From Candidatus Bathyarchaeota archaeon (GTDB lineage Archaea; Thermoproteota; Bathyarchaeia; 40CM-2-53-6; RBG-13-38-9): 64,000 nt of DNA. The position numbers were made by a program, and so were the translations under genes. Numbering within the stretch: position 1 is the stretch's first letter; each line of letters opens with the position of its first letter. This document shows, in pieces, positions 14,037 through 58,542 of this stretch. Where the stretch lies: positions 1 to 64,000 of the forward strand of contig CAWECG010000003.1 in NCBI GenBank assembly GCA_963807605.1, written 5' to 3'. The notes beneath the pieces were generated by a model. It was not told the DNA's origin. It was given only the letters and a program-made list of their open reading frames with translations, and searched no databases.

Positions 14037-14055
14037 ATAAGGTCTGTCATGATCC

Positions 14056-31402: not shown

Positions 31403-31704
31403 AAATGCCTCCCGTTCCAGATAGAGATAGTTTCACTGATTTTTTGTTCTGATGCAATTCATTTCCAACTTGAAAGATGGAGCGTTCTTGCTCTATCCTC
31501 AGTAAATCTCTATCCGAATTCTACCATACACATCAGATGGTACACTCAAGAATCTATAGTTCAAATCTGGATACTCTCACCAAAATACCCGCACACATAA
31601 AATCAATACCTAACGATAGAAGGCGGAAACCCGAGGTTTGCGGTTGTTCAGGCTTCCCCGCGGCGTGACGGTCTCGGTTAAATGGTATCGGAATGAGTTA
31701 ACAA

Positions 31705-32868
31705 GTGGTTTATACGTGTTACAAGGAGAGCTTGCCGGTACTTCTGATGTCGATTACGACTGGTAAGCTTCCACTAACCCTGCTATTGATGATGGTGATT
31801 GTCTCAGCAGGCTCCCTTATCCAATTGCAGCCTGCCTCCGCAACCTTTCCAGGAGCCAACGGCAAGATAGTATTCTCAAGAATCGTCGGAACCATTGTAA
31901 TTCAAACCCCTCCAACTATTTTCGCTCCAACCCTTCCAACTCTGCTCCCTCAATATGAGATCTTCACTGTGAACCCTGACGGCTCAGGCTTGACTCAGCT
32001 TACCTCGACCGGGTCAGGCACGGCTAATGTATACCCACGTTGGTCTGCGGACGGTACAAAAATAGTATTCGCAAGCTTCAGGACTGGCGTATCCGCGATC
32101 TGGGTGATGAATGCTGACGGATCAGGACAGAATCAAATAACCCATCCACCAGCTTCTACAAGTAACTATGAACCGGCCTTTTCTCCTGACGGATCAAAGA
32201 TTGTATTCACAAACGAATCATCAACTACTACTAACATTTGGGTGACTAATGTTGACGGCTCAAACCAGAAGCAACTGACTATAGGATCTGAGCAAGACAA
32301 TTTTCCTGTCTGGTCTCCTGACGGGTCGAAGATAGCATTTATGAGATATCCAGTATCCGGCAACGAACACATCTTTATAATGAATCCTGACGGCTCAAGC
32401 CAGACCGACATAAGCAAGGATCCTAGCGCACAAGACTACTACCCTGAATGGTCCCCTGACGGACGGATGATTGCATTCAGTAGCTTCCCCAGTTTTGCGA
32501 TCTGGGTTATGAATGCTGACGGTTCAGGCAGGAAGCAACTGAGCACTCCTGCTAATGGATTAACAGATGTCTTTCCCGCTTGGTCTCCTGACGGAACAAA
32601 GATCGCATTCACCAGAGGCGGACTCGCTAGCATAATTGTGATGAATGCAGACGGCTCAAATCCAACTGACATAACCCAATCACAGCCAAACTCAATCACC
32701 GACACTACTCCAAACTGGCAGCCTCTGTTCCTGCCTCCGCCCGCAAGACCTGTAGGCGGAGTCACCCTACCAACCAACAAGCTTGAGATTCTAACACCCT
32801 CCCTAACCTTAGTAGGACTAGCCGCTGCAGTATCCGCAGTTGTAGTAGTTAAGAGAAGAAGAGACTAA
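31705..32868 (+). CDS. Secreted TolB-like (PD40) beta-propeller protein with PVGG C-terminal anchor
   Basis: Signal peptide, ATFPGANGKI, repeated P.WSPDG.KI.F, C-terminal PVGG + TM helix + KRRRD; start may be 31747. Confidence 0.88.
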   Translation: MVYTCYKESLPVLLMSITTGKLPLTLLLMMVIVSAGSLIQLQPASATFPGANGKIVFSRIVGTIVIQTPPTIFAPTLPTLLPQYEIFTVNPDGSGLTQLTSTGSGTANVYPRWSADGTKIVFASFRTGVSAIWVMNADGSGQNQITHPPASTSNYEPAFSPDGSKIVFTNESSTTTNIWVTNVDGSNQKQLTIGSEQDNFPVWSPDGSKIAFMRYPVSGNEHIFIMNPDGSSQTDISKDPSAQDYYPEWSPDGRMIAFSSFPSFAIWVMNADGSGRKQLSTPANGLTDVFPAWSPDGTKIAFTRGGLASIIVMNADGSNPTDITQSQPNSITDTTPNWQPLFLPPPARPVGGVTLPTNKLEILTPSLTLVGLAAAVSAVVVVKRRRD

Positions 32869-32982
32869 CCAAAACATCCTTCCTCTTTTTTCGTAACTTC
32901 CTAGCATACTTTCTTTTTCACAATCTGCCGGGCGAAGCGAGGCATATCTTTTTTCGTCGTCGTATCCCTTGGTGAGCACACC

Positions 32983-33414
32983 TATGAGAATGGAGAGTCT
33001 GTACCAGTTAAATGGTCTTCCCATGGACTGGGGCATCTGCTCCATGAAAACGAGCAAGAATGGGAGAAAGCTCTGTGGACTAACATTCTACGATACGCAT
33101 TAGGCAAAATTTCCAAAGAGGAATTGCTAGCACCGTATGCAACTGAGTATGCCGTGGCAAAACTAAGTTTGACTAAACCTCACCTTCTCAAGAGAGTCAA
33201 GGCCATAAACAAAGTAACATCAATGACCAAGCGGATCAGGCCCTACAATTTCGTTCTAGCTGGGTCTCCCGCCAGAGTAGACCAAAGAGGCAAACCCATC
33301 ATTCCGCTGACAAATTTCACCAGAGAATATGATCTAGCTCCACATCAAACGTTCGTTGATGCCAGGAGTGGCAAACACTAGACAGAATACACCGAATCAT
33401 ACTGGAGAAGATGA
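32983..33414 (+). pseudogene. Fragment of a casposon-type family B DNA polymerase
   Basis: KWSSHGLGHLL...W...IRPYNFVLAG...PIIP...FVDARSG..*..SYW, a motif set recalled from casposon PolB C-termini. Confidence 0.6.
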
Positions 33415-34248
33415 ATAAGGGGTAGGAGGGTGGACAATACGCCTATCCAGAGGTCTTCATCAGGCTCCTAGGCTACATGCGCATGTTCTTCCACCTGCCC
33501 TACCGGCAGACAGAAGGACTCCTGAAAGCACTGAGAAGATTCGACTCAAGGATCAAAGTGCCTGACTAAACTATCGACAGGCGTGTGAACAAGTTGGATG
33601 AAAAAATCTTTGGAGATGACATAGTCCTGGCGGTGGATGCTTCAGGCATCAAGGTAGCTAACCGCGGCGAATGGATGCGCGACAAATGGAAGATCAGACG
33701 CGGATACCTAAAGATCCACATCGCGGTGGATGTGAAGCAGAAGAAGATCCTGGCGCTAGAGGTGACCGATGAAAAAGTGGGAGATGGACAAATGCTCAAG
33801 CCGCTGGTTGAGGAAGCCTCCAAGAAGAGTAAGGTCGCTAAAACAATTGGCGACGGAGCATACGATATGGAAAGCAACTTTCACTACCTCGACGCAAAAG
33901 GGATTGAGTCACGCATCAAGGTGCGGAAGAACACATCCAGCAGAGCCGGAGGATGCACGCCCCGCAAACTCGCAGCCCAAAAATACCTGCAGGACCCGTA
34001 AGCCTGGAAACGCAAGCATGGCTACGGCCAGCGCTGGATGGCTGAAACCGCCTTCTCGTCCTTCAAGCGAACCTTTGGAGAATATGTCTCAGCCAAAACG
34101 ATGCAAAACATGGCGAAGGAAATGATGATCAAAGCCTCACTATACAACATGCTGATAGAAACGACCACAGCAACACAAGGCTAGACGAAACCTGAAGACA
34201 GCCAACAAAAGCGAAAAGCATCACCGAAACCTAGTCGCGCAACACAGC
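33410..34248 (+). pseudogene. IS5-family transposase, degraded, with right TIR
   Basis: FHLPYRQTEG, VDASGIK, YLKIHIAVD, GDGAYD, YGQRWMAETAFSSFKR with internal stops; ends in gcaacacagc. Confidence 0.85.
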
Positions 34249-34306
34249 ACACACGACCAAAGTTTTAAATCAATCAATCTGAAATTTCTAGATAGGTGCA
34301 TCTGGT

Positions 34307-34645
34307 TTGGTAAGTCGTTCCATAATAGCGATAGTGGTTGTCATAGTGATAATTGCTGTGGCTGGAGTCTACTATATCTCTAGATCTCCTGCCCCGACTC
34401 CGCAATACTCACCTCCTCAGTCTACGACGCCAACCGTCGCTGCAGACGGTGCAGCATTGTACAAAGACAACTGTGAAGCGTGCCATGGTGCAAAGGGTGT
34501 TGGAGGGAAAGGCCCCGTGCTCACTGCCAGCAATGTAAACAGAAATACAATAGAGAAAGGTAATATCGATAAAGGTATGCCAGCATTTGGGACTACACTC
34601 ACTCCGGATCAGATTACAGCGATACTACAGTACTTGACATCCTGA
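34307..34645 (+). CDS. Membrane-anchored monoheme cytochrome c
   Basis: N-terminal TM helix, GAALYKDNCEACHG, GMPAFG. Confidence 0.88.
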   Translation: MVSRSIIAIVVVIVIIAVAGVYYISRSPAPTPQYSPPQSTTPTVAADGAALYKDNCEACHGAKGVGGKGPVLTASNVNRNTIEKGNIDKGMPAFGTTLTPDQITAILQYLTS

Positions 34646-35143
34646 GTAGAAATGGTAAAATCTCAACTCCTGTAGTGTAGGCGTTTTTCCCGGCCTGCGT
34701 CATTATGGCTCGATGATAGGTGATGGTCCAAGGAGCATTCAGTAGAGCCTACGCTGGCTTATGCAGAGCTTGAAGACGTTTCAGAATGTTCCGGTGCCTT
34801 GAAAGTAACTCAAGAACTCCGTCAAGGGCCCTCATCCAGCGAGCGCATCCCTCCAAACTTATCGAATCAAAGTATGTTGCCATTGAGAGGTAAAGGTAGG
34901 CCGAATGAAACTAAATGTTCAACTGTTCATTCAAGGCATCTAAGATTTTCTTGCCAATCATTTTTCTCACACTTTTGTATGTAGACTTCAAGGGGCTGAT
35001 AGCTACTTAATGCTATAGCGTCGACGTTGTGAATAGGTATCCCCTTTTAACAAGAGTCAAAGAATACGGCTTGGAATGTTGTGAACGTCTTCGATCGAAC
35101 TTAATAGGTGCCAGTTCCTAATTGAAATTTAAGTAGGTTTTGT

Positions 35144-35458
35144 ATGCCAATAGATCCAGATTTTGCAAAGAAACTCAAGAAGCATGGCCAGCACAATGGA
35201 CATGATGTTTGGGGCGAAGTGCAACCTCCAGAAAAGCTGGGAATTCACGGCACCAGCGTAGCCGTGGATCATGAAGTTTGTGACGGGGACGCCATCTGCG
35301 TACAGGTCTGCCCGGTTAACGTATACGAAATGATCGATAGCCCAGGACACCCGAAGTCGGACAAGAAATCAGATCCCGTCAGAGAGTCCGACTGCATCTT
35401 TTGCATGGCCTGCGAGATCTCGTGTCCACCCAAGGCAATCAAAATAACCCAGAAATAG
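35144..35458 (+). CDS. zfx: Zinc-containing ferredoxin
   Basis: IDP..H.GH.VWG.V.PPEKLGIHGT.VAVD N-terminal extension; CDGDAIC...CP and CIFCMAC...CP, as in Sulfolobales Zfx. Confidence 0.88.
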   Translation: MPIDPDFAKKLKKHGQHNGHDVWGEVQPPEKLGIHGTSVAVDHEVCDGDAICVQVCPVNVYEMIDSPGHPKSDKKSDPVRESDCIFCMACEISCPPKAIKITQK

Positions 35459-35696
35459 AAAACCAGAAATCAACTTCAATCCCCTCGAAAATCTGACAGA
35501 ACCCTCTTCTAACTCACCTTTTTCAACCATTTTTTTATTATTCTTCTTATCGTATACTCAGGGATATTTGTTATAATCTGTTGTATGCTCCGAAGGTTGG
35601 CAACCAATTCAGTTCTAAGATATTCTTTAATTTTGATCCCAATTTCTTCATTTGAGATAGGAGATGATGTTTGAGAATATTGAATATAGGTTCTCC

Positions 35697-35969
35697 TCAT
35701 TGCCTTCCACCACCATAACTATTATAGAAAAATAAGGCGAATTGTGAGCCGAACTCTCCCACGGTATAGATTTTCACTCCTTCATGTTCACCTACGGCGT
35801 CTCTAATTCTATCTGCAACCTTTCTATCCGCTAAAATCACAAGATATTGTAACCCCTCTGCTGTTGCTTTTTGGACCTGTTCCTCTACCATATTCCTTAA
35901 TTCTTCTAAAGTTGCTTTTTCACTAATGCTGAGACTAATCCCTCCGTCTATTGCTCCCCACCCAGCCAA
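35697..35969 (-). CDS. Hypothetical protein
   Basis: 90-aa ORF in an AT-rich patch, overlapping 35509-35700; possibly a fragment. Confidence 0.4.
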   Translation of the reverse strand: MAGWGAIDGGISLSISEKATLEELRNMVEEQVQKATAEGLQYLVILADRKVADRIRDAVGEHEGVKIYTVGEFGSQFALFFYNSYGGGRQ

Positions 35970-36008
35970 AACTACGTTGGACTTTGTATTGTGTTCAAAA
36001 TTGGTTGT

Positions 36009-36161
36009 AACCTCAACTCATCCATATCGCCAGTGACAAACCCTTTATTCTGGAAACCACGAACTAGGCAAGAGAAACACCACAAGACTGCATAGAGTCG
36101 GGAATGAAAAGGGAAATGAAAATGTAGGCGGTCGCACCACTCCAGCAATGAATAGATACAA
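36009..36161 (+). repeat. About 153-bp dispersed repeat, copy 1
   Basis: Near-identical to 53043-53195; partial copy near 59912-59942. Confidence 0.9.
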
Positions 36162-36383
36162 CTGATGGAATCTTTGCGCCACACACAAGAACTAGACAGT
36201 TATTCAGAATCCGCAAAGAGTCGGGTCATATGATGAGGCTAGTTATTAGTACCGTAACCTTTTTCTATGCAGCATAGCGCGCGCGTTTTGGGATACTAGC
36301 ACAATTACATTGTGTAATGGTCGCGCCTAACTTCTGGGAGAAAATAAGGATAAAGAAGGTTGGAAAGCAGGCTAGTGTTGGCT

Positions 36384-36992
36384 TCACATCTCATTGTGGC
36401 TACGCGCGTGTACGAGATATGTCGCAACAGCTAGAATCGCAATCATTACTCCAATAAGCGTAACTAGGCTATTCGTATCCAGAAGCGGTTGAGCAACCAG
36501 TGCTGCTTGAGTAGATGCAGGTGATACAGTCGTTGATGGAACAGTCTGGGTAGTACTCGACGTAGGCGATGAAGAAGGGGCAGTTTGTGGTGGACTAGGT
36601 GAGGCTACGTTTGGAATCCGAGGGCATCCGGAACAGTCCGCGATGATTTTGAAACTATCAAAGCCTACGATGGTATTGCCGGAGAGAACAGGATTAACTA
36701 GGATCACGCAGGTATGAGGTGTGCGAATCACGGACTTAGCGTCATACCAGCTATACACCTTCTCTGTTGAACATTGGTGCAGATATTCAGGAAGACCGTC
36801 GTGATCATCGTCCTCGACGAATCCGCATATCACTGTTGGAGGCGATGATCCTAATGGTGGTTGACCATTTGCTATTCTAATGTGCGCAACAGGAATGATG
36901 CTAGCGATTATCAGGAGGACTATTGGTAGAATCGAACCTTTGCGAGGCATGACCAGTGTCCTTGCTCTTTGCATCGTTATTGAGCTCTTCAT
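36384..36992 (-). CDS. Secreted Cys-containing protein with S/T/P linker and C-terminal TM anchor
   Basis: Signal-like segment, low-complexity stalk, terminal hydrophobic helix; start uncertain. Confidence 0.6.
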   Translation of the reverse strand: MKSSITMQRARTLVMPRKGSILPIVLLIIASIIPVAHIRIANGQPPLGSSPPTVICGFVEDDDHDGLPEYLHQCSTEKVYSWYDAKSVIRTPHTCVILVNPVLSGNTIVGFDSFKIIADCSGCPRIPNVASPSPPQTAPSSSPTSSTTQTVPSTTVSPASTQAALVAQPLLDTNSLVTLIGVMIAILAVATYLVHARSHNEM

Positions 36993-37124
36993 AAGCATTT
37001 CCGCCCGCTTGGCATAGGTGCAAATCTGAGGATCATGCGAAAATGCGCTCCTGCGGTAGCTAGAGCAAGCAGAATTCCTAGGGATGATGGCCATGCTCGA
37101 TGCTTTTGGCTAGCTTGCTAGCCA

Positions 37125-37586
37125 TCAGCACGCGCGGCTCGATTGAGGTGATGTTGGCGGGTTCTCGCGTCTCCATGAGATGTTTATCGGACCGGCTTGG
37201 CCAGCATGAGTTATTGCTGTGTCACCTGTTACGTTGTCCGCTACGCAGATGTAGAGGAAGAAGTCACCGACCGTGTCAGTGAGTATGGCACCGTCAGGGG
37301 AGTAGTAGTTTCTTTGATCACTTGGCGGAACGTAGAGGCTTCCAGGCAGCAGAAATGCTATGTGGCCCGGAGCATGTCCGCCAAAGTCTTTCGGAGTATG
37401 GAATCTTGGTTGGCCGTTGCCAGCTACATTAGTTGGACTGACTGGAAGGCCGCCTGCGGTCGTCTCTCCAATCTTTCCTGGCAGTTGGTCACCCAATGTG
37501 TAGTGGGCTGCGACCTGCTGTACAGTAGCTAAGGCAGCTAATACAAACATAGTTACGCAGAGCGTTGCGAGTATTTTTGTAATCAT
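37125..37586 (-). pseudogene. N-terminal fragment of a large secreted/surface protein
   Basis: Signal peptide + HYTLG...NYYSPDGAIL; ends abruptly at a cgcgcg tract. Confidence 0.5.
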
Positions 37587-37821
37587 GTTCTACTTCTCTA
37601 GGCCACTTCAATTCAGTTGTTGAAGGGAATTGGATAGCTGACGTGAGCGCTAACATTAGATGCAAAACTGGTATTTTTAAGATTTAATTCAATCTAGTCG
37701 TATCCAGATTTTTTATGTCTGGCAACGGCCTTGTTTGACCTAGGCAAGGCCAGCGAATCTTTAGGGAGATAGGGAAAAACTAGTTTGACGGCGTCTATGG
37801 CCTGAGAGATCCGGTAGAATT

Positions 37822-39465
37822 CTATGTGGCTACTATCTTGTAAGGTCGCATCATTGAGTTGTCTTCGTGTTCGAGGATGTGGCAGTGCCAGACGTAGTTC
37901 CCACCTGTAGTAGTGGGATTGAAGGTATTATAGGGACCGAATTTTACGATGATGCGTGTTATCGTCTCTGTGTTCGCTCTGACGGTGTCCTTCCAGCCTG
38001 CCTCATTGGGGTCAGGTGGCCCGGCAGGGCCCTCAAAATCAATCTCCTTTTTTCCTTTGTATGTTTCAACATCGTATGGTTGTCTATCGAGAATCTGAAA
38101 TTGTACGGCGTGTAGGTGAATGGGATGTGTGTCTTCTGTGGTGGTTATCAGGCGCCAGATCTCGGTTGCGCCGAGTTTGGGGTTCTCAGTTATCGGATCA
38201 TCCCACATTGAGCCATTGAGTTTCAGTATTACGGAGTTGCCCTGCTTGGATTTATTCTCGTCTAGAGTCAAATCCCTGACTGGCGTTGTTGGGGTCTGAA
38301 CTAAGGGCACGAATGGCATGGTGGCTGGGATAGTGCTGTTGTCTGGTTGTGTAAGCGGTACCACTCTGAACTGCATGACCTCAGGAATCACAAGCTCGAC
38401 TCCATTTGGAAACGGCGCCTTAGCGTCATTTGTCAGGAGTATCTGAGTTCCTGGTGAAACACCTGTAAAGTCGACAATTACGTCAGCCCGTTCTGCTGGA
38501 GAAATCAAGAGCTTCTTCACTTGCACAGACGAGGGCAAGAAACCGCCGTCAGTCCCGATCTGATGGAAGATTTGGCCCGAGTCAAGACTTAACCTGTAGA
38601 AGCGAGAGTTCGAGCCGTTCAAAAAGTGGAATCGGTACTTTCGCGGCTCCACCTCAAGAAACGGCCAAACCTTGCCGTTCACTAGTATGGTATCACCGAA
38701 GAATTCAGGAACCCAGACAGGAGGGGTTTCAGGATCCCCCTGACCTTTAGTCGGGTAGAACAGCGAACCGTCGGTGTTGAAGGTCCGGTCTTGGATAACA
38801 AGCGGGATCTCATACTTCTCTTTTGGAAGGTTAAGCCCATCCTCAACCGCGTCACGGATCAAATAGAAGCCTGCCAGCCCCGAGATAACGTTGAGGCGCG
38901 TTATTCCAATAGCGTGGTCATGATACCAAAGGGTAGAAGCTGGGTTCTCGTTGGGATAGTAATAGGTGCTGGATCCTCCAGGAGGAAACCACGCCTCAGG
39001 ATACCCGTCGCTTGCCGGAGGCGTGAACCCACCGTGCAAGTGGACAACATTGCGGACCTCATGGCCAGTAGTTTCTGCGCCGTGAATCGTATGGTCTATT
39101 GAACTTGCGAGTAAATGTGTGGTGGGCAGGTGACTTATCCATTTCACCTGTATTGGGCTGCCTGTTCGAACTTCGAATGTGGGACCGGGATACGTACCGT
39201 TGTATCCCCACAGTGTTGTTGGTGGAAGCTGACTGTGAAGTTTCTGTGTGAACTGAGTCATTTCCACTTCGTAGTTGGTGCCTCCTGGCTCGGTAGGCTG
39301 CACGACCTTTGGAATAGGCAAGGGATCCACATACTTGGTGAGGGTGCTTGGTTCAAGCGGAGCCGGTGGGTGGAAAGCGTACTTTGATAAGGCCGCACCT
39401 ATGGCGACCGCACCTGCTAGGCCTCCTAGAGCCTTTAAGAATGTTCTTCTCTTCATTCGAAGCAT
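37822..39465 (-). CDS. Tat-exported multicopper oxidase (CotA/bilirubin oxidase-like)
   Basis: KRRTFLK; HLHG, WYHDH, HPIHLH, WHCHILEHEDNSMM copper motifs. Confidence 0.93.
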   Translation of the reverse strand: MLRMKRRTFLKALGGLAGAVAIGAALSKYAFHPPAPLEPSTLTKYVDPLPIPKVVQPTEPGGTNYEVEMTQFTQKLHSQLPPTTLWGYNGTYPGPTFEVRTGSPIQVKWISHLPTTHLLASSIDHTIHGAETTGHEVRNVVHLHGGFTPPASDGYPEAWFPPGGSSTYYYPNENPASTLWYHDHAIGITRLNVISGLAGFYLIRDAVEDGLNLPKEKYEIPLVIQDRTFNTDGSLFYPTKGQGDPETPPVWVPEFFGDTILVNGKVWPFLEVEPRKYRFHFLNGSNSRFYRLSLDSGQIFHQIGTDGGFLPSSVQVKKLLISPAERADVIVDFTGVSPGTQILLTNDAKAPFPNGVELVIPEVMQFRVVPLTQPDNSTIPATMPFVPLVQTPTTPVRDLTLDENKSKQGNSVILKLNGSMWDDPITENPKLGATEIWRLITTTEDTHPIHLHAVQFQILDRQPYDVETYKGKKEIDFEGPAGPPDPNEAGWKDTVRANTETITRIIVKFGPYNTFNPTTTGGNYVWHCHILEHEDNSMMRPYKIVAT

Positions 39466-39611
39466 CTTGACGACCTTCGGTTAAACATGCCAAATGCTGG
39501 AAAGTCAGGATTCATATTAAATACACGCGTTGTTAAGCAAATCGCTTCCTACAAGGGCTCGTACGAGCGTGCTTGACCGTGTTCCGTGAGATAAGCGCGC
39601 GCTGGCCTGAC

Positions 39612-39685
39612 TTACACGTGTAATTTACACGTCGATTTCCAGACTTACACGATCCAGCTATAACGCCGTTATTCCCTATATCCCC
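39612..39685 (+). repeat. Casposon-TIR-like arm
   Basis: About 75-bp repeat with CACGT boxes ending ccctatatcccc directly at a 14-bp core. Confidence 0.75.
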
Positions 39686-39704
39686 TGTCCCTTGGTGAGC
39701 ACAC

Positions 39705-39824
<120 letters not shown>

Positions 39825-39865
39825 ACCTGCTTAGCGCCCTTGTGGTAAAGAAGGTGTGGCGCTCT

Positions 39866-40633
39866 TTAGGTCAGAACTTTCTCTTGTATGAAGGCGCCGT
39901 GCCAGGTGTGGTACCATACCTGACCGGTGTAGCCGTTGACGCTTAACATTCCGTATATCTTGCCATCCTTGAGGACGTGCAGGGTATAGTATCCGTAGAA
40001 GGTTTCTGGTTCTTCTAGTGAGGCGCCTGGAAGGTTCGAGTCTAGGTAGGTTTGGGCTAGCTGCTTTGCATCTGTCTTTGTAACCGACATATTAGCTGTA
40101 GGCACTCCACTGTATGGTTGGTAGCCCCATCCACGGCCCATCATTCCTCCGCCTTGACTCCAGCCACCACCCATAGGGCCCCAACCGGCCATCTGTCCGT
40201 ACTTGGTGTTCCACATCATGCTTGGCCCTTGCTCTAGATGGATTATTCCCATCATCCCGCCCATTCCGCTTAGGCCGACTGCTTTCTCGATGATTCCTTC
40301 GAAGGCGTCGATCCCTGTGCTCTTCTCGTAGGCAATGAAGTAGTAGTTATACTGGAACTCCATGATCTCTTTGACGGCTAAGTCAGGGTATCCTAAGGAT
40401 GCTACCCAGATCTTCGCCACCTGTGCTGCCTCATTGATATTCCTTGGAATTGCCGGGTAGGGTTGGTAGGATCCTGTAGTTGGAGTTGGAAATGTTGGGA
40501 AGGGAGTCGTTTGCGCTGGAAATGTAGTTATCTGGCCTGTGTATGTTGGTGCCCATTGTACTGTTGAGAATGCGGCTAACCCTACGATGCCTATTATGAT
40601 TAGGACTACTCCAAGCAGGATCCTTCTGTTCAT
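39866..40633 (-). CDS. Exported PepSY-like, Gly/Met-rich conserved protein
   Basis: EIMEFQYNYY, MMWNTKYG, FYGYYTLH, MLSVNGYTGQVWYHTWHGAFI. Confidence 0.7.
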   Translation of the reverse strand: MNRRILLGVVLIIIGIVGLAAFSTVQWAPTYTGQITTFPAQTTPFPTFPTPTTGSYQPYPAIPRNINEAAQVAKIWVASLGYPDLAVKEIMEFQYNYYFIAYEKSTGIDAFEGIIEKAVGLSGMGGMMGIIHLEQGPSMMWNTKYGQMAGWGPMGGGWSQGGGMMGRGWGYQPYSGVPTANMSVTKTDAKQLAQTYLDSNLPGASLEEPETFYGYYTLHVLKDGKIYGMLSVNGYTGQVWYHTWHGAFIQEKVLT

Positions 40634-40646
40634 TCTGTTGCTCCTC

Positions 40647-41039
40647 TTAGGAGAGTTCCTGCTTCATTCGTTCGTAGTCTTCTTTTGTTATCTCGCCCTT
40701 GGCATATCGTTCCTTTAGGATCTCAAGTGGTCTGTTGCTTGGTGCTGGACTCGCGGGTGCTGGTCTGCCTCCGCCTACGAGGTAGTAGATTCCAAACGCT
40801 ATCAGACCGATGAAGATCAGGAATACGATTATTCGGACGATTGCGCCGAGCCAGTTGAAGCCGTAACCATAGCCATATCCTCCATAGCCCATCATGCCAC
40901 CGTACCCACCGTTCGGGCCGTAGCCACCCATCATGCCTGGGCCCATAAAACCTCCTCCCATGAACATCAAGGGCCCTGCGAAGACTATTATCAAGATAAT
41001 GACTAGGAGGATGATCCAACCGCTGCTTCTATCGCTCAT
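40647..41039 (-). CDS. SHOCT domain membrane protein
   Basis: GMMG repeats; PLEILKERYAKGEITKEDYERMKQEL. Confidence 0.9.
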   Translation of the reverse strand: MSDRSSGWIILLVIILIIVFAGPLMFMGGGFMGPGMMGGYGPNGGYGGMMGYGGYGYGYGFNWLGAIVRIIVFLIFIGLIAFGIYYLVGGGRPAPASPAPSNRPLEILKERYAKGEITKEDYERMKQELS

Positions 41040-41295
41040 ATGTTCATCTCAGTTTATTTTGTGTTCAAAGCTCGATAAAACCATGTTGTTCCTCATCGAG
41101 AAGGTTATTCCAAAGAACCCTTTTCTTACACACTATTTAGCAACATCCTGTATTTGTTGGACGCAGGGTATCACAGACTATTTAGGGAGTTTTCAGAATT
41201 TAGCCCACTTCGCCACCAAATCTAACCCAAATAGTGGCCCCGGAAGTCAAGCTGAATCATATTTCTTTCCAAGAAAACAGACTAACATGCATTTG

Positions 41296-41383
41296 GGATA
41301 CTAGCACAATTACACGTGATATTTACACGTCGAATTTCAGACTTCCACGATCCAGCCATAACCCCGTTATTACCTATATCCCC
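41296..41383 (+). repeat. Casposon-TIR-like arm
   Basis: Ends ttacctatatcccc at the core at 41384; begins gggatact. Confidence 0.75.
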
Positions 41384-41437
41384 ATCACCGAGGGGCACAC
41401 AACTGTAATGGCTAGCTAAGGTTAAGGACGTTCGTAA

Positions 41438-41959
41438 CTATGGCAGTCCTGGCTGACTCGGTGGTAAGGCGAATTTTATGAATGGAAAGCCTGTAGCCAC
41501 ATGACAGTTATTGCATCCTTCTATTCCATTGTTGTATGCTGTCTCGAACTGATTCCAATCCTTCGCGTCTATAGCCTTGTCCAGAGGGTCGAGGTAGGCA
41601 CTTTCGAAAGCCTTGAGTAAAGGCGCTCTCCCCGGCCTCGTAGTCTCCCCCACCTCCTGTATCTCCCTAGCTTCTGTCAACTGGTATTTTGCAAGATCCC
41701 AATTACCAGCCTTAGCTGCATAGTAGATTTCATAATATCTCTGGCCGTACTCGATCATTACAGTGCCCAACCCAGGCTGAAGTTCAGCAATCTGGCCCAA
41801 TGTCAGATTACCATGCGAAGTTTTCAACGTAACGTTTTCAGCTCCACTGTAGGGTAGCTGCGAAACTTGAGCAGCTCGAAAGTTCAAGACCAAAGATGTG
41901 GTTGCAACTCCGAGAGCCACAAACGCAATGATTATTGCAACGGCAATACTACGTTCCAT
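41438..41959 (-). CDS. Membrane-anchored helical c-type cytochrome-like protein
   Basis: N-terminal TM helix; PGLGTVM...AGNWDLA.Y; C-terminal CNNCH. Confidence 0.7.
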   Translation of the reverse strand: MERSIAVAIIIAFVALGVATTSLVLNFRAAQVSQLPYSGAENVTLKTSHGNLTLGQIAELQPGLGTVMIEYGQRYYEIYYAAKAGNWDLAKYQLTEAREIQEVGETTRPGRAPLLKAFESAYLDPLDKAIDAKDWNQFETAYNNGIEGCNNCHVATGFPFIKFALPPSQPGLP

Positions 41960-42417
41960 ATTAAATGACTGTTTTCAATCACAAATTTAAGCTTGGTGTG
42001 CACTTAACACAGCGTGTGCGCTAGAAACCATACGCGCGCGCACTACAATAACGGCTCGCTACGCTCGCCGAGTCCGAAGAACGGATGAATTGCGATTCTA
42101 CTGTCTCTCGATTCAGTTGGAGCGTTCAAAGTACTTTCTAAAATCACTTTCAGGCGTGAGCGATCAAGCGACGCATCGCCTGGCGGAAACGTTCCTCGCT
42201 CTCACGCAGGACTTGCTCCGCGTTCTTTTGCCGGGTAATGTCTCGCGCAATTGTTGAAGCACCAACTATCTTGTCGGCAGAATTTGAACTCTAGTTTTGT
42301 GTGTGCTCACCAGCTATGGCGACGACGACCAAAAGCGCGCTCTTCCGTTTTGGAGTATAGGTGGATAGCAAAGAGATTTAAAATATTCTAATAATAATTT
42401 CAGTCTGGGGATTAAGA

Positions 42418-43026
42418 ATGGCAAACCCAACAGACGGAAAATTGAACTTGCTGACTGATAAGAACAGCGTTTTGATATTAGTTGACTATCAACCTTCGAT
42501 GTTCAAGAGCGTTAGTTCGGGGGACAAAACAATAATTAAGAAGGCGACAATTTGTGCAGCAAAAGCCGCAAGCATCCTAGGAGTTCCTGTCGTTTTGTCG
42601 TCAATTAATCCTAAATCTCTAGGGGAGTTTATTCCAGAAATCACTAAATTGTTTCCAGAGCAGGAAGTATTTGCACGAAAGATACCGAGTTTTGATGCTT
42701 TTGAAGATGAGAGAACCTGGAGTGCTGTCAAGAAATCAGGGAGAAAGAAATTAGTTATTTCAGGATTGTGGACAAGTATGTGCTTTGCGTACACCGCTCT
42801 TCATGCTTTGAAAGAAGGGTACGAAGTTTATGGATTAATTGATGCTGCTGGTGATTCTACACTTGATGCGCATAGATACGGCGTCGAGAGAATGTTACAG
42901 GCTGGAGTAATTCCAATTACTGTAGAGTCATTGGTGTCGGAATGGATGCACGACTGGGGAAATCCAAAAGCAGGCGAGCTTGTTAAAGAAGTTTATTCGA
43001 AGTATGGCGCAATGATTGGACTGTAA
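42418..43026 (+). CDS. Isochorismatase family hydrolase (YcaC-like)
   Basis: LILVDYQP, GRKKLVISGLWTSMC, DAAGD, RMLQAG. Confidence 0.9.
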   Translation: MANPTDGKLNLLTDKNSVLILVDYQPSMFKSVSSGDKTIIKKATICAAKAASILGVPVVLSSINPKSLGEFIPEITKLFPEQEVFARKIPSFDAFEDERTWSAVKKSGRKKLVISGLWTSMCFAYTALHALKEGYEVYGLIDAAGDSTLDAHRYGVERMLQAGVIPITVESLVSEWMHDWGNPKAGELVKEVYSKYGAMIGL

Positions 43027-47101: not shown

Positions 47102-47938
47102 ATGAGAGCAAATGAAATAATTGAAATGGCTCTGAATGAAGATCGTTGCGATGAAGATATTACTACTAACGCTCTAATCCCTGAAGGTTCTAAGACGAAA
47201 GGAGCTATTTATGCAGAAGAAAGCGGTGTAATTGCAGGTTTAGAGGCAGCACGAGACGTCTTCCGCTATGATGACTCAGACGTGACCTTCACGCCTCTGG
47301 TAAGAGACGGTGACTATGTTCGCTCTGGTCAAAGACTTGCTGAAGTTGAAGGTGATGCTAGAGTAATTTTGTCACGCGAAAGAGTTGCGCTAAACTTTCT
47401 CCAGCATCTCTCTGGCATAGCTACTGCTACAAACAGATATGTGAAGAAAGCTGGGAAAACCATAATCTTAGACACTAGAAAAACAACCCCAGGGTTGCGT
47501 GAATTGGAGAAGTATGCGGTGAGAATAGGGGGCGGATATAACCATCGATTGAGTCTAGCTGAGATGGGTATGATCAAGGATAACCATATTGCATTTATTG
47601 GAAGTATCAAAAAAGCGGTGAAGCTTGTCAGAGGGTACTCACACAAGAAGATTGTGGTAGAAACTAAAACGATTAATGAAGTACTGGAGGCAGTAGAAGC
47701 CAAACCTGACAGGATAATGTTAGATAATATGTCCCTTAAAGAAATGAAAAAGGCCATAGAGATCATACGCTCAGCCAATACCAGGATAGAGATAGAGGTC
47801 TCCGGAGGCGTTACATTAGAGAATATTGCGGAGATCGCAAAGCTCGAACCCGACTATGCCTCCTGTGGAGCGTTGACCCATTCAGTTAAGGCATTAGAAA
47901 TGAGTTTAGAGCTAGACCAAACTATTGCCAACCGTTAA
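47102..47938 (+). CDS. nadC: Nicotinate-nucleotide diphosphorylase (carboxylating)
   Basis: LDTRKTTPGLR, NHR, IKDNH, IMLDNM, SGG, GALTHS. Confidence 0.95.
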   Translation: MRANEIIEMALNEDRCDEDITTNALIPEGSKTKGAIYAEESGVIAGLEAARDVFRYDDSDVTFTPLVRDGDYVRSGQRLAEVEGDARVILSRERVALNFLQHLSGIATATNRYVKKAGKTIILDTRKTTPGLRELEKYAVRIGGGYNHRLSLAEMGMIKDNHIAFIGSIKKAVKLVRGYSHKKIVVETKTINEVLEAVEAKPDRIMLDNMSLKEMKKAIEIIRSANTRIEIEVSGGVTLENIAEIAKLEPDYASCGALTHSVKALEMSLELDQTIANR

Positions 47939-48689
47939 AACATTCTGACGAACCTAAATTCTGTCTTCAGAAGAATCACAATGATACGTAGGTTGTGACC
48001 CCTGAGCCGCCCACCAGAACTGATTGGACGGGAGTTACATCTCTCCATAGCGCGATGGTATGGGAAGTGTTTTTGCAGAGGAGGCGCTCATGCTATCCTA
48101 TTGGCGCCTGCGTTTATGGGTTGGATCTGAATGACTCAATTCATGCAACAATCTTGAGGTAGTTGATAGAAAGAAGATTATTGACGAATGGATAATTATG
48201 TTATTGTCAGGCCTAGACCAGCGATCCTTCTTATGCAAAAGCGTTCCGGCCATACTAAAGAGGTGACTAAATTGAAAAAACCGACTCCAATTCGAATGAG
48301 AAAAATCCTGACAATGACCTCTCTCAGGACCAACTTAGACTTCTTGATCAAGCAATCGATGATCAAAACGACAAATGCACTTCTCGATCGTCAATCATTC
48401 GGAGTCTAATTGATGAGTACCTTCCAAAGCCCAGGAGCAAATAAAATTGAGTATCTCAACTCCGGAGCTATCTAAAACCCAGATAGGGATCATCGGCGAA
48501 TACTCTCTGGACCAAGCAATCAAAGAACTGTTCGAGCAATATCCAGGACTCGAATATCAAAGCCACTTAGACGGATCCCTGCAGGATAAAAGAATCGACG
48601 GACTAGTCCTTTTAGACAACAAATCCGTTGAACTTGAAATTGCAAATTGCTCTACTCACTACGCGATCTTTCTTCCATGCGCGGCCCCC

Positions 48690-49068
48690 AGTACTCCAGC
48701 GAAGCCTTCAGGAACGAGGCAAGACGCCTAGGCGTAGAACCAGTTCATACCATACCCTAGAAACCAGATGAAGGGCAAACAGGTTCTACGAATCGACCGG
48801 AAGTTCCGCTCACACGGACCTGCCCGTCTGGAGCAAATGATCCGACACAGAACTGCAGTAGAGAGTCACATCTCGACTCAAAGAACACTATGGACTACGA
48901 CAGCTTCGAACACGCGGCCTAAGAAACGTCTACACACACGTAATCCTATGCTTGAATGCTATGCTGGCCACCGCTCTATCTGCGATCAAACATGGAAGCA
49001 TCCATAAGATGCGGTCACCAATCCAGTTCACAAAATTGACAGGTAAGACATAATATTGCAAGAGGCTA
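48690..49068 (+). pseudogene. DDE transposase 3' remnant (IS5/IS1182-like) with terminal repeat
   Basis: Frameshifted RTAVESHISRLK..LRTRGLRNV..HV.LC; ends ttgcaagaggct. Confidence 0.6.
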
Positions 49069-49154
49069 GCGCGTTCTATCAGTAGACTTTTTCTACGACA
49101 GCTGATAAAATGCAGAGACCTGCACCCAGGATGATAATTCTGAACAGAAAATTC

Positions 49155-49592
49155 TCAACTGCCAACAGCAATCCGACCCAAGCAAGAAAGAAACCAGCCC
49201 ACCCAATTACATGAAATATCCACTTTCCCAACTGTATGATTACCCCACCACTTTTCTATCGGTGCAAGTTTGACTCCCAGGTCTTCCCTTAAGGCTCTGA
49301 TCAATCTCTCCCTCCGCGCCTTATCCTTTATGATCTGATCAATAACAGCATCCACATCCTTCGAGGATGCAGAGTTAAGAATCATCCCGCAGCTGCTGCA
49401 GTAGACCGCTACAGGCGCATTCTCAGTCTGGCAGCCTGGACACATCTGAATCATGACTATAGGCCTAAGAACCTCCTCCTCCTTCCTCTTGAGGCCGTGA
49501 AGAACCAAGTCCTTATCATCAACATTCTGCATCGTCAAGTGGGTGTAGACCCTGACGATATCCGGTCTACGCCAGCCGAATAACTTCATCAA
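49155..49592 (-). pseudogene. C-terminal remnant of a tyrosine integrase with zinc ribbon
   Basis: LMKLFGW...VYTHL catalytic Tyr motif followed by CPGC..N....YCSSCG. Confidence 0.75.
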
Positions 49593-49709
49593 TTCTCGAC
49601 ATATGTGATGCCACTGCGTACTCGAGATTGATTATAGACGAAGCGCCTGAGGCATTAGAAGCTTTGCATTTTACGAAAGCTGGGAGAGCGTTAGTGTGCG
49701 CTAGGGCAG

Positions 49710-49786
49710 ATTTCCACGTGGCAATTTACACGTCGATTTTCAGACTTCCACGATCCAGCCATAACACCGTTATTACCTATATCCCC
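49710..49786 (+). repeat. Casposon-TIR-like arm
   Basis: Ends ccgttattacctatatcccc at the core at 49787. Confidence 0.78.
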
Positions 49787-50033
49787 CTCACCAAGGGATA
49801 CGACGACGATATCCCTTGGTGAGCACACACAATATTTAATCCTTTTAGGGGAAGAATCCCCTAAAACCCTCTTGCTTGAAGTATTGGTGTATCACCAAGG
49901 ATGATTCACTTGGACTGGCGGCGCACACTAGATGGGATAAAGTCTTGGCGAGGTAACTTTAAGATTCTAGTCTCCGCTTCAATAAGTGTATTACTCTAGC
50001 GATTGCCTCAGCTTTTGTTGGAAGTGAGATTGA

Positions 50034-50363
50034 ATGGAGAAAGAAAACATGAATGGAATACTCAGGCTTAAAGAGGAAATTGATCAAACCTCAGATGAGC
50101 TTAGAAGAGAAGCAAGCCGCATAAAGGGAGACGTAATTGCTGTAAGAAATGATCCTAAGGTACAGAAGATTTGGAATAAGCTATGTCGGCTTCACATGAA
50201 AGCAATGGTAATTTGTGAATTTGATTCTAAGAATGTAAGTGGGCTGGAGAAAGTCTGTGAGGGAATTTTGCATCCCACTGCATGCATAGAAACGCTTCAT
50301 CTATCAGAAGAAGAAACTTGCTGCGGAAGATTCTTGAAAAGAATTGAAGCAGAAAAAGGGTAG
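50034..50363 (+). CDS. Hypothetical protein
   Basis: 109-aa ORF, sole gene between the cores at 49810 and 50496. Confidence 0.55.
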   Translation: MEKENMNGILRLKEEIDQTSDELRREASRIKGDVIAVRNDPKVQKIWNKLCRLHMKAMVICEFDSKNVSGLEKVCEGILHPTACIETLHLSEEETCCGRFLKRIEAEKG

Positions 50364-50796
50364 CTGAATGCCCTGAGCCAAGGGATTCCTAGCGAAAGGA
50401 CATTTTCAGTCAATTTTCTTGCGCTGGAGCGGTTGTTAGAGGGCTCCTCTCCTAATAAATAGGAGCAGGGGGGCGTAGGAGACTCTTCTTGTGTGTGTCC
50501 CTTGGTGAGAGCACTCTAATTTGAACCCATGAAGGTCTCCACCACAGGAAGTGAGTCCCATGCCAGAAATGATGTGTTAAACCTCAAGCTTCCCTCACTT
50601 ATTCAGTCACTGTCTCACATGGTTCTCGCTATTATAAGCAGTGGTGGCGAAATCTGAAGTCGACATGGACGGATGCTACGCTTGGATTTGTTAAATCCCG
50701 AAAATGTTACAAAGACAAGAATCCCTACTGTAACGTTACAGCACCCAAGCATGCAAAGAACTGATACAAAAGACACTAACCCACTAGAATTGAAGG

Positions 50797-51814: not shown

Positions 51815-51990
51815 ATGTCCATGTGGATGTCCACGTCGGAAAACCAGCATCCACGTGACCACACCAAACAGCCAGTTATCTATATCCCCCTCACCAGCTA
51901 ATGCACACACACAAAAATTAACCTGCTCTAACGGTGCAAATTACGATGCTCACCAACTGGAGCACAGACAAGTTGTCTCGCTCCTGCGCC
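51815..51990 (+). repeat. Divergent TIR-like arm plus two cores 59 bp apart
   Basis: ...gttatctatatcccc|core 51890|45-bp unit|core 51949. Confidence 0.8.
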
Positions 51991-52774: not shown

Positions 52775-52990
52775 TTGCTCCTCATGACGTGCAAGATGTC
52801 CTTCGTTCTAGGATATTCTATGGTGGCTTTGAAGTGTCTTAGACTCTTGAAGCTGATCTTTTGTATTCTAGGGTTTTGCATCTTCTCTGCTATCTTCTCT
52901 GACCAAGTCCGGAACAGGTTTGTCAAAATCGATTTGTTTTGTTTTTCCGAGAATGAAAATCGCCAGTTCCTGAGTTTTCAACATTATCAT
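52775..52990 (-). pseudogene. Tyrosine integrase internal fragment
   Basis: IAEKMQNPRIQKISFKSLRHFKATIEYPRTKDILHVM (H/K-x-L-R-H box); not in the ORF track. Confidence 0.75.
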
Positions 52991-53042
52991 GCTATCCCAC
53001 CGATAGTATTTGTTTCGGTGTAATACAGGAGAATTGAAGGAA

Positions 53043-53195
53043 AACCTCAGCTAATCCATATCGCCAGTGACAAACCCTTTATTCTGGAAACCACGAACTA
53101 GGCTAGAGAAACACCACAAGACTGCATAGAGTCGGGAATGAAAAGGGAAATGGAAATGTAGGCGGCCGCACCACTCTAGCAATGAATAGATACAA
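53043..53195 (+). repeat. About 153-bp dispersed repeat, copy 2
   Basis: Near-identical to 36009-36161. Confidence 0.9.
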
Positions 53196-53360
53196 TTAAC
53201 GCGCGCGTACATGTATGAAGGGGAGCAGGGTCATGTATCCATTGCACAAAGCCGCGGGCGTCTCGATAGCTAAGGCGGATCTGCCAGCGCGCGCTGGTGA
53301 GCACACACATATCCATTATGCAGGATAAACCCTGAACAGTGCTCAGGTGCGTACAAACAA

Positions 53361-53708: not shown

Positions 53709-54105
53709 GTATCAGAGTGATCAACGTGAAAGTAAAAGCGCTAAAAAGGCCCAACACACCCATCGCATATCCTTGATGATGAATAAAATCAGAATAACCT
53801 TCATCGTCGGCGCCCAATCAAATCACCCTACCGATAGCGAGTTTGCTTGATTCTCCCCCACCTCCCGTTTCAAAGGATATAAGATTTGTCAATGTTTTAC
53901 AACACTTCTTCATTGCTAAACGCAGTCTCCCATAGCAAGTCTCGTGTGCATAGGGCGGCGTGATTTCAAGGCGCGCGCTATTGATTGTGTGTGTGCCTTG
54001 CTGGTGAGCGACGACGACGAAAAAAGATGTGCCTCGCTTCGCTTGGCAGATAATGAAAAGGAAAGTATGCAAGGAAGTTATGAAGAAAGGGAAAGACTGT
54101 TTTGG

Positions 54106-56779: not shown

Positions 56780-56952
56780 CCTACGTGCATAACCGTTTCG
56801 ACCTTATTCTTTAGCTTTACGATTAGAGTGGGGAATCGATGCAATGATTATGTTGTAGCTTGGCGTTTCGAAGAGCGCCAAAAAAGGGGTAATTCAAAGA
56901 ACAATAGCTACATCAGATGGTTTTGCTTCAGGTTATTCGGGTAAGTAAGCCT

Positions 56953-57543
56953 TCAGATGGTGGGCTTTTGGGATTGTGCAAGGAAAAGGAAGATCACAAG
57001 TCCAATGGTGATTGCGGTGATCATTGGAACTGCAATTTGCTCAACAGCGTTCAGGGCCTGAGAGAATGGTTGTGCTAAGAGAAGAATCAAAGCCATGGCC
57101 CCAGATTCAAAGCAAAAAGCAAGAACGGCTCCTTTAAGCAAGTATGCTTTTCCCGCAATCTTGTTTGAAACTAATCCCGCTATGACACCTGCAAGAATGG
57201 TAGAAATTGAGCAGGGAAGAGCAGTGAAGCCGCCTACTGAGTATCTGTGAATACCCCCAATTAAGCCTGCCAATAATCCAGAAACCGGCCCCCCAATGAG
57301 TCCAGCCATAAGAGGCGCCAGCTCTCTAACGTTCAATATTGCGCCACCTACCACAGAACCCATCAACGTTGCATAGATAGCTAGTATTCCGAAAACAACG
57401 GAGATCAATATCTCTTCTTTCATCCAGTTCTCCCCTCTTATGGGCTTGATGATGCCCATCTTAAAGAGAAGAAGTGCAACAACAATCACAAAAGACGCAG
57501 TTCCCAAAAGAGATAAGATGCCCCAAATAATACTTTCAAACAC
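56953..57543 (-). CDS. Stand-alone 5TM-5TMR LytS/YhcK receptor domain protein
   Basis: GAILNVREL...AGLIGGPVSG..AGLIGGIHRY..GG.TA.PC. Confidence 0.85.
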   Translation of the reverse strand: MFESIIWGILSLLGTASFVIVVALLLFKMGIIKPIRGENWMKEEILISVVFGILAIYATLMGSVVGGAILNVRELAPLMAGLIGGPVSGLLAGLIGGIHRYSVGGFTALPCSISTILAGVIAGLVSNKIAGKAYLLKGAVLAFCFESGAMALILLLAQPFSQALNAVEQIAVPMITAITIGLVIFLFLAQSQKPTI

Positions 57544-57785
57544 TTAGAACCACTCCTCATAGCGTAATCTCAAGATCTTCGCCAGTCTAACTACTTAACA
57601 TTATATAAAGACAATACAATTAACTCGTGGCCCGAAAGATCCAATGTGCCTCCAAGGCTTGTTTCAATTCAGCGCGCACGCGACAGAGCCCTCGGGGTCC
57701 TAATAGCACTCATTATATCTTGGCTTGATCATCTACTTACCTGTCTACGTCCACGAATCTTCAGAGGCAACCGGGTAAGGAACCA

Positions 57786-58130
57786 GTGAGTACATCACAC
57801 CCGCTCCTATTGCCAGAAAAGAGCGAGATTCACTGTCCAAGCTGCGGGGCAGTCAACCAAGAAACATGGACCTTCTGCCACGTTTGCGGTAAGAACCTCA
57901 AATCTGCCCAGCTGACCAAAGAAGAACTCCTACGAAGCGCAGTGAAAGCACTAGACCAAGGAGAGAAGGAACTCGCAAAGAGATTCATGGACCAAGCAGA
58001 ATCCCTGCTGGAACCACCTAAGCCTAAGCCATCAGAAAAAGAAACCAAAACGCCGACCTGTATTTCTTGTGGAGCCCAAATGCCTGCCCTTGCGACATTC
58101 TGCCCTGTCTGTGGAACTAAACAGCCCTAG
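57786..58130 (+). CDS. Double zinc-ribbon protein
   Basis: CPSCG..FCHVCG and CISCG..FCPVCG. Confidence 0.75.
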   Translation: MSTSHPLLLPEKSEIHCPSCGAVNQETWTFCHVCGKNLKSAQLTKEELLRSAVKALDQGEKELAKRFMDQAESLLEPPKPKPSEKETKTPTCISCGAQMPALATFCPVCGTKQP

Positions 58131-58542
58131 CCAATCATAGACAGCTAGCTGGAGATATTTGCATGCAATCTCGATTGATGGGCGGTTATGATCGAAACCC
58201 AACAATAGCTCAACGATGCTTATCCGGAAGATCTATTCCCTTGGTAACAAACTCCATTTGGATCATGACAGTATCAATTCACTTCTAGCGCGCGCGTTCT
58301 AGCGCGCTAGTGAGGACACCCAAAATCCCATTATTAGATTCTGTATGTGTGCGTCGTCGTGTCCTTGGTGAGCACACACACCAGGCTTTGACCTATGCTG
58401 ATAAGCCCAGATTGACTCGATAGGATTTCGATAGTCAACTTTGCATTTTTCCCTACAACATCTTAACACTTGTCTCACTTTGCCTTATTGAACGCGCGTG
58501 CGTATACTATGGCCGACTTGTGCGATAGGTCTTCGTTAGATT

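Follow-up and report, generated by a model that had tools for sequence, protein, structure and literature searches.

The DNA analysed here is a 64,000-nucleotide stretch from a Candidatus Bathyarchaeota archaeon (contig CAWECG010000003.1, positions 1 to 64,000; hereafter the window), in which a 14-bp core recurs between genes from position 31576 to position 58372. These cores are probably target-site duplications (TSDs) made by the casposase, a Cas1 homologue, of a PolB-less lineage of Bathyarchaeia casposons, and the system is a casposon variant that builds cassette islands and is not, by definition, an integron. The target consists of a leader with a T-loop motif at positions -15 to -9, followed by C(T/G)CACCA and seven further nucleotides, and is derived from tRNA 3' ends. 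Autonomous elements of 8.6-11.3 kb with short simple-repeat ends lie between identical cores, perfect duplications also bound small cassettes that share these ends but lack a casposase, and portable targets inside the element ends are used for nested insertion.

Core sites

Core sites were called by a combined score, with the same scoring of reversed sequence as a control. The genome holding the window is labelled G000; other G-numbers denote genomes and L-numbers loci. The window contains 19 arm-bearing cores, all intergenic and in both orientations, while in its first 31 kb only five bare CTCACCA matches occur, none with arms. Across G000 there are 159 sites compared with none in the reversed genome (one in the reversed window under a looser rule); 155 of them lie outside long open reading frames (ORFs), and 118 are grouped into clusters that together cover 178 kb; of the 31 clusters, that of the window ranks second in size. 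The first seven bases of the core are conserved as C(T/G)CACCA, the last seven vary around two types, and the right-hand (3') end begins exactly 14 nt past the core start in 78 of 102 cases. A CTCGCT.CGCTCG box is present in 14 copies within 1.5 kb of sites and nowhere else.

A sequence-only reading of the window had described about 19 intergenic copies of a 14-bp core in either orientation, starting about 0.5 kb after a tRNA-Gly gene, nearly absent from the first 31 kb and often accompanied by a subterminal CTCGCT box, and all of this is borne out, as is the uneven spread of the cores. The scan of the genome and its relatives that it called for shows, on the other hand, that the array is not particular to this locus.

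Leaders and element ends

The arms of the cores are of two kinds, T-loop-like leaders and element ends, and do not form the four freely interchangeable types previously supposed: the leader (AGCATC..AATTGAAC) precedes the core (5') in 63 cases and follows it (3') in one, and the remaining arms are element ends. Within the leader, the tRNA T-loop-like GTTCAAAT is followed by 9 nt before the core, and 60 of 64 leaders have the spacing required by the casposase of Aciduliprofundum boonei, which needs TCAAATC 8 bp upstream of the 14-bp TSD plus a TCCCC end (PMC6614799). The casposase of Methanosarcina mazei needs CGCA, the 4 bp before CGCA and a patch 12-17 bp upstream (PMC6977970). The leaders retain exactly the positions needed by these two enzymes, and positions -4 to -1, which were left out of the detection rule, show conservation as well (49-58 of 63). 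In 60 of 64 copies the T-stem does not pair, and the leader is therefore a DNA motif and not a piece of tRNA.

The CA, CGA and CCA repeats, as well as a longer GGGGATATA family that exists alongside these simple-repeat tips, point outward from the core on both sides, in the manner expected of element ends; (CCA)n is a further end type found elsewhere in G000. The ends are inverted only across the short CA/CGA/CCA tips, as compared with the element-specific terminal inverted repeats of about 25 bp or more by which family 2 casposons are defined, and units with mixed ends are common. One subterminal sequence occurs with CA, CGA or CCA tips, which suggests that the tips are remade. Of 388 tips, 363 end in G, a count with some circularity, since these same repeats served to class the tips. 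The GGG end equals the TCCCC terminus of the A. boonei casposase.

Many element ends hold a spare leader and core 40-55 nt inward, that is, a portable target; 31 ends carry a second leader and core within about 75 nt, and most targets are such portable mimics and not tRNA genes. None of the real tRNA genes of G000 is occupied by core insertions. Among the G000 intervals with ends on both sides, 23 have the flanking sites in the same orientation, 19 are convergent and 8 divergent. Convergent core pairs joined by a 5-10 nt simple repeat, some of which mix core types, occur in G000 at 49787-49823 of the window, C3:386181, C1:408533, C1:426322 and C4:721491, and also at L081:7084 and L082:3841; such tightly joined cores could be oligonucleotide integrations into two targets, or deletion remnants. 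The most CRISPR-like mini-array of the genome is a four-core chain at C1:351909-352087, with a spacing of 52-59 nt and CGCACCA followed by three different 7-nt tails.

Casposase and autonomous elements

G000 encodes one full-length Cas1 (C3:803495-804703), on the same contig as the window and 740 kb away. Its best match in the PDB is the M. mazei casposase (6opm; E 5.7e-72, residues 1-397 including the C-terminal part), by which sequence similarity we identify it as a casposase, i.e. a Cas1-solo that has a helix-turn-helix (HTH) at its C terminus. The gene belongs to a unit of 8980 bp that has CGA ends and is bounded by two identical cores; next come a unit of 4051 bp and a third core with one mismatch. 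Several casposase fragments occur in G000, including one within the window, for which the earlier reading had noted no intact recombinase.

The autonomous elements combine the casposase with a winged HTH protein, a 120-aa protein, an AEP-like protein, an MCM-like ATPase and variable defence-type cargo; the casposase recurs with the 120-aa protein, a protein of about 150-157 aa and usually the ATPase, in varying gene order. For the 275-aa ATPase, the top 50 Foldseek matches of the structural model (pLDDT 85) are all MCM (E 7.6e-8, TM by query 0.53-0.70), and it is predicted to have an MCM fold. The 157-aa protein, in which D17, D19, H59 and D82 (DxD, H, D) are invariant in 119 homologues, bears a weak structural likeness to AEP (Foldseek top matches to LigD polymerase at E 6e-3, and VIA with Z of 5.4-6.0 against HP0184 and PrimPol), with weak AEP Pfam leads. 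Searches of PHROGs and PDB sequences gave no identity for the proteins of the element module. PolB is absent from every duplication-bounded element examined in G000 and its relatives; G000 itself has two PolB genes, both far from the element, and no pPolB. No other cas families were found among the called genes of six casposase loci. The cargo of the C3 casposon (L011:10423-14354) is defence-like (DUF5677, SIR2-like, AAA ATPase), and other casposase elements carry DarT, AIPR, DndB or a methylase. At L214, the ATPase stands next to a Cas1 fragment, with no cores.

Distribution and duplications in relatives

The comparison set comprised 105 genomes of this Bathyarchaeia order and 296 other genomes of the class, the relatives of the host being Candidatus Bathyarchaeia metagenome-assembled genomes (MAGs). 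The strict tip-core-tip pattern was found in 43 of the 105 and in 2 of the 296, with controls at zero, and the leader-core-tip pattern in 48 of the 105; an additional 63 metagenome contigs carry sites, and the anatomy is the same in short-read MAGs. Casposase matches (E<=1e-25) occur in 18 of 34 site-rich genomes as compared with 9 of 71 others, related genomes not being independent. A Cas1-solo casposase had been proposed as a co-occurring enzyme, and one is indeed present, on the contig of the window.

Identical 14-bp cores flank casposase elements at seven loci (G000, L041, L064, L068, L089, L140 and L215), which supports the earlier proposal of a re-used TSD that a recombinase generates in trans. 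At L068 the insertion point is the 3' end of tRNA-Met(CAT), and at L089 a leader and three identical cores surround two tandem elements. At L140, a 9.0-kb casposon with its own duplication lies inside the portable target of a 10.2-kb outer unit, whose duplication is a different one. Core tails are more varied in the relatives, where flanking cores pair identically in 12 of 47 cases against 1.6 expected (one pair is counted twice, and some loci were chosen for their casposase), in 6 of 29 against 1.0 expected for loci not so chosen, and in 4 of 29 against 1.1 expected for metagenome loci (p=0.017). Perfect duplications also surround six casposase-free cassettes of 0.67-4.3 kb (L072, L073, L076, L078, L165 and L182), that of L182 being a single gene between CA tips. 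The 873-bp cassette at L165:171-1043, found as the same unit in L054, holds a TATA-binding-protein-like ORF, by reading of its translation. Leader and core sites are also present on two IMG/VR viral contigs (L195:13755 and L196:881-957), without the casposase module, and such contigs are a possible route of horizontal spread.

Features of the window

30973..31085, + strand: tRNA-Gly(GCC) gene with intron, 490 bp upstream of the first core; its own 3' end lacks a CACCA core
31559..31589, + strand: leader GTTCAAAT-N9 and core 31576-31589, then a CA-type end
31590..32962, + strand: cassette of CA end, TolB-like PD40 repeat gene (31705-32868) and CGA end
32963..32976, - strand: core, CA end 5', CGA end 3'
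32977..39685: 6.7-kb interval with an IS5-like insertion sequence (IS) copy (33402-34250), a multicopper oxidase gene (37822-39465) and a GGG-type end (39599-39685)
39686..39699, - strand: core, long CA tract (39707-39822) on the 5' side, GGGGATATA end on the 3' side
39700..41383: cassette of CA end, ORFs 39866-40633 and 40647-41039, and GGG end
41384..41397, + strand: degenerate core
41438..41959, - strand: cargo ORF of 173 aa with a membrane anchor and CxxCH motif, no Pfam/NCBIfam match
42306..42319, + strand: core, CA end 5', CGA end 3'
42418..43026, + strand: isochorismatase cargo gene
43120..43297: four-core chain, at 43120 (-, CGCACCA type), 43166 (-), 43225 (+) and 43284 (+)
43298..49786, + strand: 6.5-kb block of CA end with CTCGCT box, EamA gene, nadA-nadB-nadC (44644-47938), IS remnant and GGG end
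49787..49823: two convergent identical cores with a 9-nt (CGA)3 insert between them
49824..50509: cassette containing ORF 50034-50363; its cores, 49810 and 50496, lie on the - strand, with a leader 5' of 50496
51890..51962, + strand: core 51890 (GGG end 5'), 45-nt portable-target unit, degenerate core 51949
52877..53050, - strand: remnant of the casposase, covering about residues 300-357 of the intact gene (45-47%)
53288..53301, - strand: core whose 3' side is cut short by a (GC)n run
53995..54008, - strand: core, with a CGA end at 54011-54225 that matches the end 32749-32963 at 90% identity
55793..55932: convergent cores at 55793 (+) and 55919 (-), with a 112-nt unit of ends only between them
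56953..57543, - strand: 5TM-5TMR_LYT membrane protein cargo gene
58359..58372, - strand: last core, CA end 5', CGA end 3'

The intervals between cores range from 9 nt to 6.7 kb. Single-gene intervals, as described before, are found in the TolB-like, isochorismatase and ORF 50034 cassettes, while several other intervals hold many genes or IS copies; the supposed cytochrome at 41438 has the CxxCH motif and no match in Pfam or NCBIfam. The cargo is accessory, in agreement with its proposed accumulation: among 104 other genomes of the order, a single one has the isochorismatase (E<=1e-40), and nadA is in none of 15 family relatives and 73-81% identical in another family.

Cargo of the window is found both naked and end-capped within G000. 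The TolB-like cargo (31630-32918) recurs without ends at C4:87969-89253 (93.5%), the 39866-41039 cargo has two further copies without ends (91-92%), and in the window both are capped by ends 15-45 nt from the limit of homology. The segment 41385-42032 is 98.3% identical to C1:518464-519110, the homology beginning exactly at the core; its 5' arm is a GGG end here and a CA end in the C1 copy. In the chain 43120..43297, the cores are linked by three 32-45 nt units, each made of a CA tip, linker and leader, and these units are portable target sites. Outer cores 43225 and 49787 differ at one of 14 nt and are likely a TSD; cores 49810 and 50496 also differ by one mismatch, and both pairs may be true core pairs.

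The earlier idea of a single array nucleated at the tRNA-Gly gene of the window finds no support in its core-less 3' end, though homologous tRNA ends are occupied in relatives. At L209 (G077), a similar tRNA end is occupied, the intron-rich tRNA-Gly-like gene being assigned by reading and not called by Rfam, and the tRNA-Gly of the window is a possible ancestral nucleation site.

Among other features, the tract at 39707-39822 is (CA)58 compared with the usual 3-5 units, for which slippage or a long-read artefact is possible. Partial copies of multicopy IS lie inside cassettes at 33402-34250 (IS5-like) and 48689-49073, with 8 and 7 other copies, respectively. A 153-nt direct repeat (96%) at 36009-36161 and 53043-53195 has a tRNA-Gly-like 3' end (GGCGGCCGCACCA) without a leader and is possibly an att remnant of another integrase; its second copy adjoins the casposase remnant. 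A tRNA-Ala called by ARAGORN at 31349-31428 was dropped, having no Rfam support; this segment shares a 27-nt inverted repeat with 50805-50831. Outside the island, there is a large inverted duplication (1796-4241 and 12616-14040; 88-98%), and short palindromic repeats typical of IS200/IS605-type ends lie at 2179, 10003 and 13989.

Mechanism, age of the island and alternative explanations

In the mechanism that we propose, any DNA carrying a pair of such ends would be a substrate for the casposase, which would act in trans and insert it in either orientation, and repeated insertion into portable targets would give rise to nested islands of mixed orientation. Cargo would first acquire its end modules through illegitimate end joining, frequently at (GC)n runs, and later deletion, end re-pairing and recombination between cores would scramble the pairs. 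Flipped insertion of elements with a subterminal target might produce the convergent intervals, with decay and core recombination accounting for the rest, and the G/T-rich 3' tips might, more speculatively, be re-synthesised by the AEP-like protein of the element. Movement of mini-casposons in trans has been observed in vivo in M. mazei (PMC10359463).

Several results weigh against casposase-made duplications as the source of the cores, or limit how much they explain. In G000, flanking cores are identical in 3 of 54 pairs against 3.8 expected. The only full-length casposase of G000 has Pro at the conserved catalytic His, which relatives keep, and its present activity is therefore doubtful; 16 of 34 site-rich genomes, which are incomplete MAGs, have no casposase match at E<=1e-25. 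The TG-ended tips differ from the TCCCC end motif of the A. boonei casposase, and relaxed end specificity must therefore be assumed. No empty site was found at an orthologous locus, the flanking genes of the window having no close orthologue in 15 family genomes and the flanks of two G082 cassettes no syntenic match within the genus. Finally, the ends of duplicated segments in G000 coincide with cores in 20 of 680 cases (6 expected) and with (GC)n runs in 89 (about 10 expected).

TSD pairing inside G000 was likewise not significant under nearest-site and best-of-12-kb rules, and adjacent same-orientation pairs lie within one mismatch in 8 of 23 cases against 3.6 expected (p=0.02). Since flanking cores no longer pair above chance, we infer that the window is a reshuffled, aged casposon-built island, and the excision and shuffling of single cassettes once proposed for it are not supported, most duplicate breakpoints lying off the cores. 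As duplicate ends are far more enriched at (GC)n than at cores, cargo capture is probably not a casposase step. The (GC)n runs of the window (42032, 49070, 53195, 53288, 54684, 57679, 58290 and 58492) belong to a class that, at 8 nt or longer, far outnumbers GA or AT runs in G000; such runs are often present in one duplicate copy only and flank two 1.1-kb IS families, which suggests that (GC)n marks a separate end-joining or IS-targeting process. Read evidence came from four low-share peat contig sets of one study, with patchy coverage and no contig across the island, and in these neither an empty site nor a circular junction, both of which had been proposed as tests, was seen. One peat contig of depth 4 joins 49584-49831 to the 43216 arm via a shared tip and core (an alternative arm at core 49810), weak evidence that repeats can mimic.

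An improbable alternative is that only autonomous casposons ever integrated and that the cassettes are deletion remnants, never mobilised in trans, with host genes having entered by illegitimate recombination and IS, and the variety of arms stemming from homologous recombination between repeats. The many casposase fragments near sites, the lack of a TSD excess in G000, the predominance of (GC)n over cores at duplicate breakpoints and the solo terminal inverted repeat (solo-TIR) decay known in M. mazei (PMC4779613) all fit this explanation. It is opposed by the perfect cassette-specific duplications around 0.7-4.3 kb casposase-free units without replication genes, by the duplication that the L140 outer element has of its own, and by the retention of the leader motif in many tens of portable sites of several families.

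Far less credible is a reading in which a tyrosine integrase, or a recombinase of integron type, crosses over within the core, the cores then being its att sites and fragments of tRNA 3' ends. Six tyrosine recombinase matches in G000, two of them within 1.5 kb of sites, the peat contig linking 49584-49831 to the 43216 arm through tip and core, and one duplicate breakpoint exactly at a core speak for it; this reading is largely refuted by the complete duplication-bounded elements, which have a casposase and no tyrosine recombinase, by the lack of any IntI above cut-off and of conserved inverted binding boxes flanking the core, and by a spacing that fits casposase biochemistry exactly. That the cores are repetitive extragenic palindromic (REP)-like or regulatory intergenic repeats, or an assembly artefact, is refuted by the duplications around casposase elements and has next to no probability left: the intergenic position of 155 of 159 sites and the possible inflation of very long CA tracts (58 units) by long-read assembly agree with it, while the clustering of 118 sites over 178 kb, the accessory nature of the flanked genes, the same anatomy in short-read MAGs and 63 metagenome contigs, the polarity of the leader and the paired duplications do not.

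Starting from casposase-made duplications, a stronger claim, which is possible but on present evidence doubtful, is that of active Cas1-driven gene capture and shuffling, in which de novo simple-repeat tips, speculatively made by the AEP-like protein of the element or a host enzyme, turn arbitrary fragments into substrates and portable targets are selected docking bays. If true, such a capture system would stand, in nature, midway between casposons and the adaptation step of CRISPR (end specificity lost, leader specificity kept), and would be integron-like in its working.

Among the unsolved steps in the emergence of CRISPR is the passage from an end-specific transposase to a Cas1 that places arbitrary DNA at a single leader. 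The present lineage joins ends that are relaxed and apparently remade to a strict choice of leader, has short chains of repeats and inserts and lacks PolB; both this step and the production of casposon ends thereby become testable with one small enzyme set and known substrates. The lineage further provides a way in which large islands of accessory genes can arise in uncultured archaea that abound in sediments; in G000 such islands make up about 7% of the genome and include a nadABC block that close relatives lack. The casposase would, in addition, be a compact site-specific integrase, with a landing pad that is restored by the inserted cargo. Tandem casposons, solo-TIRs and the movement in trans of engineered mini-casposons are already published (PMC4779613, PMC5137440, PMC10359463); a literature search, with most subscription journals outside its scope, returned no report of PolB-less AEP/MCM casposons, simple-repeat ends, portable targets or natural casposase-free cassettes at about 100 sites per genome.

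Comparison with known systems

The closest known systems are the family 2 casposons (A. boonei AciBoo-C1 and M. mazei MetMaz-C1), with which the elements share a Cas1 homologue with a C-terminal HTH and a 14-bp TSD (PMC6614799, PMC6977970, PMC4779613), as well as a tRNA 3' end target with the T-loop leader motif, tandem arrays formed by re-use of the site, a CGCA-type core (in relatives) and a GGGGATA-type end. They differ in having AEP-like and MCM-like genes instead of PolB or HNH, ends that are mostly 6-20 nt simple repeats of variable type with portable target copies, about 100 sites per genome as compared with 1-3, and casposase-free cassettes with host-type cargo. Judged by its gene content, the element falls outside the casposon definition with respect to PolB, yet appears to work like family 2 at the integration step.

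As in integrons, accessory genes, often single, lie between recurrent recombination sites, and one recombinase would serve many cassettes. The sites appear, however, to be duplications with inverted tips and not attC hairpins, although tip-core-tip junctions can pair trivially through inverted tips, and they show mixed orientation and nesting. The cassettes are dispersed over 31 clusters and not co-oriented downstream of one attI, and no adjacent recombinase or promoter platform was found. The best match in G000 to IntI (TIGR02249) reached 34 bits against a cut-off of 265, a score below which a divergent archaeal IntI might fall, with none at the window; membership of the integrons, beyond the integron-like array suggested earlier, finds no support.

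The likeness to a CRISPR array with Cas1 adaptation lies in the Cas1-fold enzyme, the leader-polarised insertion, the duplicated repeat and the short chains of 14-bp repeats with 40-55 nt inserts (43120-43297 of the window and C1:351909-352087). Unlike the unique spacers between identical 23-47 bp repeats of CRISPR arrays, the inserts are mutually related (tip, linker and leader), each adding a new leader, the repeat is 14 bp long with its last 7 nt variable, and no cas2 or effector genes are present at the elements.

Tn7-type elements and MITE or composite islands show site-specific pile-up at one attachment site and non-autonomous derivatives that are moved in trans. The comparison of such islands with casposons has been drawn before (PMC4779613). 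In the present system, the enzyme is Cas1 and not DDE, and the elements carry the attachment site themselves, so that islands seed new islands.

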